From: a phage
Direction: 5' to 3' (one strand)
Assembly (NCBI GenBank): GCA_014161675.1
Contig: GCA_014161675.1_4760.1
DNA length: 64,000 bases
Part shown: piece by piece, positions 55,539-59,138 of the stretch
How positions within the stretch are numbered: position 1 is the stretch's first letter
Layout of the letters: each line of letters starts with the position of its first letter
Notes under the pieces: generated by a model
The model's input: the letters and a program-made list of their open reading frames with translations, nothing else
Database searches by the model: none
Told to the model about the DNA's origin: nothing
Translations under genes and position numbers: made by a program

Positions 55539-56036
55539 ATGTCAGATCTAGGCTTAGATATGAAGCAATTAATGAATTTCGAAAGTCTAGGTCTTCCGGG
55601 GTCATTCGACGCGGAAGAAGATCGAGTGAGCTATGATCCGCTCGTCTTGACTCCGGTCGAAAGCCATCCAGAAGATCGTAATATTGACTTACAACGAGAT
55701 TATAATGAGGCACGTCAGAATATTCATTTTCAGAATCAGATGATGATGGACGCCGCAAAGATTTATCTTGAACTTGCAAAAAATAGTGAGTCTCCGAGGT
55801 TCCTACAAGCATTTAACGGCCTCATGCAGCAAATGAGCAACAACAATAAAGAATTGCTGAACATCCATAAGGATATGAAGAAAATCACCGAGCAAGCTGG
55901 AGAGAAAAAGAAAGATAATACCCCAGCCGCACCAGTTAATATCCAGAATGCGACCGTCTTTATGGGTTCTCCTAGTGATTTAATGGATGAAATCGAAGAC
56001 GAGGAAGCGCGAATTATTGAAGGTGAGACAGTATGA
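55539..56036 (+). CDS. 16: terminase small subunit gp16
   Basis: [16 protein letters not shown]...[12 protein letters not shown] matches T4 gp16. Confidence 0.9.
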
Positions 56037-57778
56037 GCGTGATTGAAGGGATTAACGCAATGGCGACGGATGAACACCCGCTACATTTAGCGCATCCGTC
56101 TACACTAGAAACTAAAATTGATTCAAACGGCATTGAATGGATTTTATCAAAGCATGATGATAAATGGTATCCTAAAAAGTTTTCTGACTATCTGAAATTA
56201 AACAGACCGCAGAAAATAAGGATGCAAAGCACTGATCCAACAAATTATAAGTTCTTTAAAGATAGTGACAATATTCGCACGCGGTATATGCGATTAAAGA
56301 ACTTGCGAAGGGCGAATATTAAAACTCAGTATACCCCTGAAATGATCGCAGAGTGGAAACGATGCCGTAAAGATATTGTGTATTTTGCCGAAACCTATTG
56401 CGCAATTACACACATCGACTACGGTACAATCAAAGTACAATTGCGTGATTATCAGAAAGATATGCTTAAGATCATGCATGAAAACCGCATGAGCGCACAT
56501 AAACTCAGCCGTCAGCTAGGGAAAACTACCGCTGTAGCAATATTCCTTGCTCACTACGTTTGTTTTAATAAAGACAAAGCGGTAGGTATACTGGCACACA
56601 AAGGGTCAATGGCGGTTGAAGTTCTAGAACGTACTAAACAAGCAATTGAACTATTACCAGACTTCTTACAGCCAGGTATTGTTGAATGGAACAAGAAATC
56701 AATTGTTCTTGAAAACGGTTCAAGTATTGGTGCTTATGCGTCGTCTCCTGATGCTGTGCGTGGTAACTCTTTTTCGTTTATCTACATAGACGAATGCGTT
56801 AGTGGCTTGACCAAAGTTACATTACGTGATAAGCTAACAGGTGAGATTAAAGAATACACCATGTTAGAGGTTAAGATGATGGCTATTCAGCAAAAGTTAA
56901 GTAAAATTAAAGAGTTATTGCTACCACACGCTAAAAATCCAAACTTGACTCGCGGATTAATTTCTGGCATAACGAAAGAAATGATGGATGAGTTTAAAGA
57001 GTTTTTCGACACTCATTTTCACAAAACAGATACAATGAGAGAATTTGTAGCATGTGTAGTAAATGATATTCTGGAACGCCCAACGTGTAAGCATTGCGGA
57101 GGCCGAGTAAAATATAGTAAAGTTCGACCGAGATATAATAATGTATGTTCTCAGTCATGTAACGCTAAATTACCAAAGCGTAGAGGACTCTTTAACAATA
57201 ATTGGGTATTCTTCCGGCGATACTTATGCACCGGATGTAATGAGTTTACAGCAAAATGTAAAGGTCATTTATGCAGAAAATGCGGGCATGAACAACAAGG
57301 CGAGGCGATGAAACGCATATACGTCGAAAACGGTGATGAAATGCGCAAAAAGTGTAACGGCAAGAAAACACCAGAACAAAGGGCTAAACAGTCCGAACAA
57401 GTTAAACAGCGTATTCTGAATGGTGAATTTACTCCTAAGACGACCAACCGTCTTAATCACACCCGCATTAAGTATGATGGTCATAGCTTTCGTAGCTCAT
57501 GGGAATTAGCTTTCTATAAAGATATGAAAGCTAAAGGAGTTAATATTGAATATGAAACGCTTCGTGTTGCATACAAATTTAAAGGAAATAATCACGTTTA
57601 TATTACGGACTTCGTAGATCACGATAATAAGATCATTTATGAAGTTAAGCCTAAGCGACTTGTTGAAGATCCAAAAACAATGGCGAAAGAACAAGCCGCT
57701 ATAGAATGGTGTAAGGAAAACGGATACACTTTCGAATATATTCACGAGGATTATATTAATGAACTTTTGGAATCTTGA
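56033..57778 (+). CDS. 17: terminase large subunit N-terminal fragment (aa 1-254) fused to IntN and a zinc-ribbon/PD-(D/E)xK nuclease module
   Basis: residues 1-254 collinear with T4 gp17 up to Walker B FIYIDE; then [12 protein letters not shown]... Hint block A; ORF continues to stop at 57776-57778. Confidence 0.85.
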
Positions 57779-58076
57779 AGGATTCGAAGTTCTCACCGAA
57801 AACGGTTTTAAAGATTTTGATGGCATAAAAGAAACATTTGGTATGATCTGGAAACTAACATTTAGTGACGGGTCATACCTTGAATGCTCAGAAAGCCATA
57901 AATTAAAATCAAGTGACGGCTTTTTTATTGAAGCCGATGATATAGAGGCTGGATTCGTTACGTCTTCCGGCCTTACTGTCATTAGTAAAGATTATGTTGG
58001 TGAAGACTTTTTATACGATCTAACTAATGTTGCCGATGGCAACCATTACACTACAAACAATGTAGAATCTCACAAT
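56795..58076 (+). mobile_element. atypically split intein (IntN about 26 aa, IntC 106 aa) with nuclease module, inserted after Walker B DE of TerL
   Basis: Cys codon at 56795 starts intein; HN at 58071-58076 followed by Cys ends it; the two halves are in different frames with a 20-nt ORF overlap. Confidence 0.75.
56876..57778 (+). mobile_element. candidate homing-endonuclease module (zinc ribbons + PD-(D/E)xK nuclease), in frame behind IntN
   Basis: internal GAGG-N5-ATGATG possible start; CxxC pairs CKHCGG/CSQSC/CTGC/CRKCG; nuclease motif ITDF...YEVKPK. Confidence 0.55.
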
Positions 58077-59138
58077 TGCGCATTTATTCAAAACTGGACG
58101 GATTGTTTCCTTGCAATTCAACCAGTAATTTCTTCCGGTCGTGAATCTAAAATGATCATGACCACGACTCCGAACGGGCTTAATCACTTTTATGATATCT
58201 GGCAATCGGCTATTGATGGTAAAAGTGGTTATGTTCCATATGAGGCGGTTTGGCATTCTGTTAAAGAACGTCTTTACAATAAAGCTGATATATTCGATGA
58301 TGGTTATGAGTGGTCATCTCAGGCGATCGCCGGATCTAGTCTTGAGCAATTCTTACAGGAACATAACGCTGAATTTTTCGGTAGTTCCGGTACTCTGATC
58401 AGGGCAACCACACTATCAAGATTATCCTTTATTGACGTTGTTAATGATAACGGGTTTTATCAGTTTGAGAAACCGAAAGAAGGTAGAAAATATGTTGCTA
58501 CACTAGATTGCTCAGAGGGTCGAGGACAGGACTATCATGCATTGCAAATCATTGATATTACTGAATTTCCTTATAAGCAGGTTGCAGTATATCACAGCAA
58601 TACTACGTCACATTTTATACTACCGGATATTGTCTTTAAATATCTCATGATGTATAACGAATGTCCAGTTTATATCGAGCTAAATAGTACGGGTGTATCT
58701 ATTGCTAAGTCTCTTGCGATGGATCTTGAATATGATAATATTATTTGCGACTCATTCATAGATCTAGGGATGAAACAATCCAAAAGATCTAAAGCAATGG
58801 GATGTTCGGCACTAAAAGACTTAATAGAAAAAGATAAGCTGATCATTAATCATAAAGGAACTATTCAGGAGTTGCGCACATTCTCCGAGAAGGGGGTAAG
58901 CTGGGCGGCAGAAGAAGGTTTTCACGATGATTTGGTCATGAGTCTGGTAATATTTGGTTGGTTAACAACTCAAGAAAAATTCGCCGAATATGCAGGAAAA
59001 GACGAAATGCGGATCGCCTCCGAAATATTCCGAAAGGAATTAGATGAATTGGGGGAAGAATACGCGCCCGTGGTAATATATGACGGTGCAAACGGCATCG
59101 AAGAATATAGGCCGCGTGAAGGTCTAACAATGATATAA
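57759..59138 (+). CDS. 17: terminase large subunit C-terminal fragment: IntC (106 aa) + TerL residues from CAFIQNW onward
   Basis: own GAGGA RBS 9 nt upstream of ATG; Hint blocks B (SESHKL) and F/G ([23 protein letters not shown]); downstream collinear with T4 gp17 nuclease domain. Confidence 0.85.

Follow-up and report, generated by a model that had tools for sequence, protein, structure and literature searches.

A probable split intein carrying an in-frame endonuclease in the terminase gene of an RB49-like coliphage

The large terminase subunit gene (terL, gene 17) of a Krischvirus, an RB49-like coliphage, has been analysed within a 64,000-nucleotide (nt) stretch of the phage's DNA (GenBank assembly GCA_014161675.1, contig GCA_014161675.1_4760.1), which is called the window here. 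Just behind FIYIDE, the Walker B sequence, the gene is very probably interrupted by a mobile split intein of the AceL-TerL/GOS-TerL/Cat family, and the packaging ATPase would be restored by protein trans-splicing. Judged from its sequence, the insert is a real, probably active and naturally split intein. An earlier sequence-only reading of the window had described an N-terminal intein piece (IntN) of about 26 amino acids and a C-terminal piece (IntC) of about 106; both sizes stand, but the homing endonuclease, which takes up the greater part of the insert, escaped that reading.

The interrupted gene is made up of two open reading frames (ORFs) on the + strand. As the sequence-only reading had it, they lie in different frames and overlap by 20 nt, and here the ORF list and the raw sequence agree. 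ORF1 (56033-57778) encodes 581 amino acids and ORF2 (57759-59138), in the +1 frame relative to ORF1, encodes 459; the overlap (57759-57778) belongs both to the 3' end of the endonuclease and to the 5' end of IntC. ORF1 starts with the N-extein, TerL residues 1-254 (56033-56794), the translation of which is identical to gp17 of RB49 and FL37. It contains Walker A (SRQLGKT, 56507-56527) and ends with FIYIDE (56777-56794), reading ...SFSFIYIDE and then directly Hint block A with Cys1, the start of the 26-residue IntN (56795-56872) as fixed by comparison with intein-less alleles. ORF1 then continues for 301 codons in frame with IntN (56873-57778, stop codon 57776-57778), encoding an endonuclease of about 300 amino acids. 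Within the 3' end of this endonuclease ORF lie the Shine-Dalgarno sequence GAGGA (57745-57749) and, 9 nt beyond it, the ATG (57759-57761) of ORF2, the frame of which is open upstream as far as 57705. ORF2 opens with the 106 residues of IntC (57759-58076), which carry block B (SESH, within ECSESHKL), block F (LYDLTNV) and block G (VESHN), and continues from CAFIQNW as the C-extein (58077-59138; 353 amino acids and the stop), in which the +1 nucleophile Cys comes first and is followed by the remaining ATPase domain and the nuclease domain. The Pfam profile Terminase_6N is divided between the two: positions 5-106 match ORF1 (E 6e-26) and positions 107-213 match ORF2 after residue 108, followed by Terminase_6C. 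The earlier account of both ORFs, TerL-like up to FIYIDE and then block A in the first, and its own GAGGA and ATG, blocks B and F/G and then collinear TerL in the second, is confirmed.

When aligned with the intein-less terL of FL37 and RB49, the window shows an insert that spans exactly 56795-58076. It is 1282 nt long, a number not divisible by three; both the span and the length are those first read from the letters. The element stands directly after FIYIDE and before a native Cys; in RB49 and FL37 the empty-allele DNA across the insertion point is ATCTACATTGATGAA|TGCGCATTT. The joined flanks, 254 plus 353 residues, give a protein of 607 amino acids, the length that had been expected, and it is 100% identical to TerL of RB49 and FL37. 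An uninterrupted terL of 1824 nt is found in most of the 64 phage records that match the region. FIYIDE holds what we take to be the Walker B Asp and the catalytic Glu, D255 and E256 of T4 gp17. Since these are active-site residues and the Cys that follows is native, the intein element lies within the active site of the TerL ATPase and takes a host Cys for its +1 nucleophile.

Among solved structures, the best match of IntC (ORF2 residues 1-106) is CatC (6DSL chain B, 'Consensus engineered intein CatC'; E 3.6e-13). Query residues 5-108 align with chain residues 13-114, which is nearly full length, at about 35% identity, and the DnaE and gp41-1 inteins rank far behind. This match, together with the literature, upholds the likeness to AceL-TerL-type split inteins and fractured genes that the sequence-only reading had proposed. 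The IntN segment found no match in the Protein Data Bank (PDB), the query being too short. A word-index protein search with IntC alone returned nothing, and an exhaustive HMMER search (E<=1e-3) returned 511 homologous cluster representatives. Many of these begin a protein of about 450 amino acids, the split form, and others are internal to TerLs of 700-740 amino acids as contiguous mini-inteins. Once the endonuclease is taken out, the two ORFs match P0010 over their whole length in a single high-scoring segment pair (59% identity); P0010 is a natural 739-residue TerL that has a contiguous mini-intein at the same insertion site. IntN is collinear with the N-terminal segment of the same-site contiguous mini-inteins of P0010, P0014 and P0007.

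The class 1 set of splicing residues is complete, with Cys1, the block B His, the block F Asp, the penultimate His, the terminal Asn and the +1 Cys. In a ten-member alignment of IntC, the block B His (H47), the block F Asp (D87), the Ser-His pair (S104, H105) and C+1 are invariant, and the terminal Asn (N106) is kept by all except CatC, which has SHA. Across the family the splicing residues are conserved down to about 35-50% identity. The insert is thus an atypically split TerL intein by its host gene, by the sizes that a split after block A gives, by homology to a characterised member and by its full residue set. It is not a contiguous cis-splicing intein, which would occupy one uninterrupted frame; here ORF1 has its stop at 57776-57778 and IntC is read in the +1 frame.

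Two observations weigh against this assignment. Pfam and NCBIfam scans give no Hint or intein match, and the Hint blocks, for which the sequence-only reading had proposed a check with intein profiles, were confirmed instead by direct sequence searches. These libraries miss the TerL intein family, so the null does not count against the intein; the same blindness is probably why GenBank has 'terminase' twice, 'hypothetical protein' or a pseudogene-like misc_feature at such loci. The second observation is the extension of about 300 amino acids on IntN, which none of the characterised inteins AceL, GOS and Cat possesses.

This extension is the endonuclease, and neither a stop nor a spacer parts it from IntN in the window, in any of the Krischvirus alleles examined or in the Shewanella phage Thanatos-2. 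Its N-terminal half, which is poorly modelled, bears Cys-rich, Zn-ribbon-like motifs (about 57080-57290) in two clusters that are preserved between alleles. The C-terminal part (about 57353-57775) is a PD-(D/E)XK nuclease domain. Pfam TnsA-like_N (PF08722) scores 34.9 bits against a cut-off of 26.5 and Phage_endo_I (PF05367) 31.4 bits against 29.1, phrog_15427 ('endonuclease') matches the region at 6.7e-48, and T7 endonuclease I (1M0D) matches at E 3e-4 with the E, D and ExK catalytic residues aligned. E210, D245, E256 and K258 are invariant among 30 homologues, in which the conserved motif is TDF...ExK. By profile cut-offs and catalytic residues alike the enzyme is therefore of the PD-(D/E)XK TnsA-N/T7 endonuclease I type. 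An AlphaFold2 model has pLDDT values of 88-98 for residues 160-300, and the nearest folds to it are TnsA and then I-Bth0305I and Vsr, with 3R3P a weak match (E 0.015); a family-profile search of the PDB was weaker than the single-sequence search. Neither a single sequence nor a profile found a sequence match to Vsr or I-Bth0305I, and the EDxHD motif is absent, so the enzyme does not belong to the Vsr-like family of Dassa et al. Most of the 111 homologues in the database are free-standing, about 300 amino acids long, with NUMOD3 motifs and the same nuclease domain, and NUMOD3 with a TnsA_N-type nuclease is an architecture of phage homing endonucleases.

The gene very probably works as follows. 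One transcript would give two polypeptides, TerL(1-254)-IntN(26 amino acids)-endonuclease(300 amino acids) and IntC(106 amino acids)-TerL(255-607), the second started, through translational coupling, by re-initiation at its own GAGGA and ATG, which lie inside the 3' end of the endonuclease ORF. IntN would dock on IntC to complete the Hint fold, and Cys1, the block B His, the block F Asp, the terminal His-Asn and Cys+1 would carry out trans-splicing, yielding a scarless TerL of 607 amino acids and releasing the intein pieces with the endonuclease. The latter, a TnsA/T7-endonuclease-I-like enzyme with Zn-ribbon DNA-binding modules, presumably cuts intein-less terL in co-infecting phages, after which the whole element would be copied into the empty allele (homing); it could act as an IntN fusion or from a candidate internal start at 56876. 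We infer trans-splicing in vivo, and likewise homing and the cleavage of empty alleles, from sequence. No internal TATAAATA, terminator or above-chance promoter was found within the terL locus, and with no internal late promoter, terminator or RNA family there, co-transcription of ORF1 and ORF2 is likely. The sole T4-type late-promoter consensus TATAAATA in 55500-59300 lies at 59134-59141, where it shares bases with the terL stop codon, shortly before the tail-sheath gene (start 59173).

The terminase fragments might instead dispense with splicing and function in a non-covalent complex, in which the intein pieces do no more than hold them together. There is a precedent in NrdA of Aeromonas phage Aeh1, which is split by an endonuclease gene and the pieces of which work without splicing. 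Against this, every residue of the splicing chemistry, from Cys1 through Cys+1, is conserved across the family, homologous inteins splice in vitro, and the break parts Walker B and the catalytic Glu from the remaining ATPase core, all of which makes such a complex improbable here.

A single precursor for cis splicing could also be made by programmed +1 ribosomal frameshifting in the 20-nt overlap. The frames do overlap, with that of ORF2 open well upstream, and P0035 is a contiguous homologue with a nuclease domain in the same loop. Nevertheless, the overlap has no known slippery or shift-prone motif, and distant T4-like phages speak against a shift. Thanatos-2, phiR1-RT and HY03 have a break at the endonuclease/IntC junction too, IntC being offset by +2 rather than the +1 of the window, yet the Shine-Dalgarno sequence and ATG are conserved in all of them, the equivalent in phiR1-RT and Thanatos-2 being GGAGG/GAGGA and ATG. 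A frame offset that varies while the start signals are kept fits re-initiation and not frameshifting, which was rejected as very unlikely.

A more mundane account is an assembly or sequencing error of 1 nt near 57700-57780, the gene truly holding one continuous cis-splicing intein with an internal endonuclease. An insert length that is not divisible by three is what such an error would leave. The same ORF boundaries and 20-nt overlap are, however, found by coordinates in the six Krischvirus records vB_Eco_SAP, TB34, kaaroe, G2494, phiS and JK32, which come from different laboratories, and a tblastn search adds GoldenSnicker as a seventh carrier of the element. All Krischvirus alleles have an unchanged overlap sequence and GAGGA-ATG, and the other carriers, at least seven independently sequenced genomes, originate from Denmark, Ireland, Germany, China and elsewhere. 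The same two-frame layout in at least seven independent genomes is a strong argument against an assembly frameshift, to which may be added the conserved junction and start signals in Thanatos-2, phiR1-RT and HY03 and the fact that most related loci in IMG/VR are split. The split thus survives the doubt that the sequence-only reading had attached to it, and the error, of which there is scarcely any prospect, was rejected. An apparent 1-nt indel does occur in vB_Eco_TB34 (L005), but elsewhere: near locus position 3600 (window 59122), at the 3' end of terL, this record has a 1-nt insertion relative to all other alleles, which stretches the annotated coding sequence to the start of gp18 and is probably a sequencing error in the record.

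That terL is here a pseudogene or decaying remnant is barely worth entertaining. Some GenBank labels lean that way, G2494 (L006) having a misc_feature 'similar to large terminase protein' and kaaroe (L002) calling ORF1 a 'hypothetical protein'; vB_Eco_SAP (L001) similarly labels ORF2 'Hypothetical protein', and none of the three records mentions an intein or an endonuclease. Nonetheless terL is essential and all carriers are plaque-forming isolates, neither ORF has internal stops or frameshifts, and a second copy of the endonuclease or intein was sought within the window and not found. A group I intron with an endonuclease ORF, spliced out of the transcript like the one in ICP1 terL, has precedent in the self-splicing introns known from phage terL genes, but no Rfam family matches 56500-58400 at E<=1 and both insert ends encode Hint motifs in frame with the exteins, so that this equally negligible candidate was rejected.

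Decay is also at odds with the substitution pattern, in which exteins, intein and endonuclease alike bear the mark of strong purifying selection. Compared with other alleles, the window has 3-4 synonymous and 0-1 non-synonymous changes in IntN and 2-14 synonymous and 0-1 non-synonymous in IntC, where the ratio of non-synonymous to synonymous rates (dN/dS) is about 0-0.02; for the endonuclease it is 0.07-0.17. IntN, IntC and the endonuclease are thus all under purifying selection. The element has a patchy, horizontally discordant distribution. JK32 differs from the window by a synonymous divergence (dS) of 0.42 in the C-extein as against 0.05 in IntC, which indicates that the element moved between terL backgrounds independently of the host gene.

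The exteins of the window and vB_Eco_SAP are near-identical (dS about 0.01), and the intein and exteins flanking 56933-57325 are 96-100% identical to those of other Krischvirus alleles, while 56933-57325 itself, in the Cys-rich and presumably DNA-binding N-terminal region of the endonuclease, has 57-80% nucleotide identity, saturated dS and a 2-codon indel. The closest match to the endonuclease in the phage collection has 79.5% protein identity. This divergent segment implies that the window carries a mosaic or second endonuclease allele. At 56788-56793, 3 nt before the junction, intein-containing alleles have GAC for the GAT of empty alleles, and ATA in place of ATT is peculiar to the window. 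These synonymous differences, which adjoin the site that the endonuclease presumably targets, may be due to co-conversion or to target immunity.

It is possible, if somewhat doubtful, that most or all of the endonuclease is produced as a covalent C-terminal extension of TerL-N-IntN, which would make this a 'one-break' split intein. A candidate separate start, read from the sequence, is provided by a ribosome-binding site, GAGG (56867-56870), with an ATG at 56876 (region 56867-56878, + strand); this GAGG-N5-ATG is conserved in other Krischvirus alleles, and Thanatos-2 has no Met at the IntN/endonuclease junction. Were the extension the main or only product, trans-splicing would free an IntN-endonuclease/IntC complex and so tie release of the endonuclease to terminase maturation. 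The arrangement would then be a living intermediate between the free-standing endonucleases of fractured genes and contiguous endonuclease-bearing inteins, and a TnsA/endonuclease-I-like branch would be added to the recognised homing-endonuclease families.

The relatives of the element form a series from contiguous mini-inteins through fractured genes of three ORFs to the rarer fusion of IntN with the endonuclease. Related endonucleases occur in terL of many cultured T4-like phages. The three-ORF form, in which TerL-N with IntN ends at a stop and is followed by the endonuclease and then by IntC-TerL-C, is seen in HY03, phiR1-RT, TG1, SG1 and PspYZU05, where GenBank labels the ORFs terminase, endonuclease and terminase; Thanatos-2 has the two-ORF form of the window. 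In a survey of 80 IMG/VR loci, classified with hidden Markov models, most were split, with an N-terminal tail of 25-59 amino acids; the endonuclease family of the window was a separate ORF in about two dozen, and about eleven were contiguous. IntN fused to a long endonuclease ORF, with IntC separate, was confined to Krischvirus, Thanatos-2 and three environmental contigs. The residues just past IntN in the window match the tail of the short IntN ORF of phiR1-RT (11/20 identical) and the corresponding stretch of Thanatos-2 (18/43 identical). This homology suggests that the three-ORF form may derive from the fused form through internal deletion, the direction being a reading of the sequences.

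The three environmental contigs (L070, L088 and L092, from IMG/VR) have an IntN of the same family in frame with a GIY-YIG endonuclease with NUMOD-like repeats, and a separate IntC ORF; their insertion site lies 6 residues upstream (...SFS|C...HN|CIIIDE). As the same fusion is found there with a GIY-YIG enzyme, the joining of IntN to an endonuclease would have arisen at least twice. Other environmental TerLs or loci (P0001, of 1043 amino acids, P0007, P0012, L037-L041 and L086-L091) contain two to four inteins of this family each, at Walker A, at Walker B and further downstream in the ATPase domain. A different Krischvirus terL, that of Escherichia phage AV108 (L004, OR352938; 495-3311), has a contiguous intein at another site, where 331 amino acids lie inside Walker A (SRQLGK|ALDVNTPIPT...IPTHN|TTAV) with Ala at position 1 and the LAGLIDADG-like motifs LGYWLGDGH and IMDSDG; the gene is annotated plainly as a 938-residue terminase. 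In Campylobacter phage CPt10 (L013, NC_027996; 1002-3977) a PhoH-like P-loop gene, marked as disrupted by its annotators, is interrupted by a homologue from the window's endonuclease family, with 43% identity over the nuclease domain.

Atypically split TerL inteins and fractured genes are a known kind. To our knowledge, such inteins have so far been characterised only from metagenomic fragments with unknown hosts, and no description of a split intein in a coliphage terL was found in the open-access literature. The finding contradicts a paper of 2024 according to which E. coli and coliphages have no reported inteins. It also corrects the GenBank labels of these loci, where terminases are listed twice or entered as hypothetical proteins or pseudogenes. 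The main value lies in a tractable experimental system, an essential packaging ATPase in phages that grow on E. coli K-12. With intein-free sister phages that have an identical TerL and with growth on E. coli K-12, several questions become directly testable by phage genetics: whether splicing limits or times DNA packaging, whether the endonuclease drives homing when phages are mixed in one infection, and how fusions of endonuclease and intein originate.

The closest characterised systems are AceL-TerL, GOS-TerL and Cat. A review describes these as naturally atypically split TerL inteins with N-pieces of 25-37 amino acids (25 in AceL-TerL) and C-pieces of about 104, Cat being the family consensus, and credits the experimental demonstration of trans-splicing by family members to Thiel 2014, Bachmann & Mootz 2015 and Stevens 2018. 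They share with the window the host gene and the inverted split, the C-pieces being about 104-122 amino acids there and 106 here, and AceL-TerL shares the Cys1 and Cys+1 nucleophiles. Their hosts are environmental viruses, whereas the intein in the window, known from its sequence, is hosted by a cultured E. coli phage.

Fractured genes were described by Dassa et al. (2009, Nucleic Acids Research 37:2560) as split intein halves at one locus with an endonuclease between them. There are three ORFs, with a stop and a non-coding spacer of 27-51 nt, often with a late promoter or hairpin, before a free-standing endonuclease, which overlaps IntC by 6-69 bp; the single terminase among them, a gp17-like gene from Lake Gatun, has an unusually long IntC of 122 amino acids. 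The window shares the broken essential enzyme gene with both halves at one locus and on one strand, and its 20-nt endonuclease/IntC overlap falls inside that range. It differs in having two ORFs only, without a free-standing endonuclease or the stop and spacer before it, and in an endonuclease that is TnsA/endonuclease-I-like where theirs are GIY-YIG or Vsr-like (EDxHD). The in-frame fusion of IntN with the endonuclease and the type of nuclease are both departures from the published description.

As nucleases, T7 endonuclease I and the N-terminal domain of TnsA share the restriction-endonuclease-like fold and the E...D...ExK tetrad with the window's enzyme, which has in addition an N-terminal Zn-ribbon region and stands in a homing element, not in a resolvase or transposase. 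To the EDxHD (Vsr-like) I-Bth0305I class it does not belong, the similarity being a weak one of fold. In contiguous inteins of the PI-SceI type the endonuclease is covalently attached and excised together with the intein, as it would be in the form proposed for the window; there it lies between blocks B and F and is joined on both sides, and here it follows block A, in the loop of the atypical split, and is joined on the N side only. The nrdA gene of Aeh1, split by mobE (Friedrich et al. 2007), likewise has two ORFs, an endonuclease gene and an overlap at the downstream start, but it has no intein and its fragments work non-covalently, while complete Hint motifs flank the break in the window. 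The three-ORF phages HY03, phiR1-RT, TG1, SG1 and PspYZU05 share the intein family, the site (IYIDE|C), the endonuclease family (49% identity in the nuclease domain) and a Shine-Dalgarno sequence and ATG for IntC inside the endonuclease 3' end. In them IntC has a frame offset of +2, IntN is ended by a stop after 41-43 amino acids and the endonuclease is a separate ORF of 199 amino acids that lacks the first 110 or so residues of the window's enzyme, whereas the IntN of the window runs on into its endonuclease.

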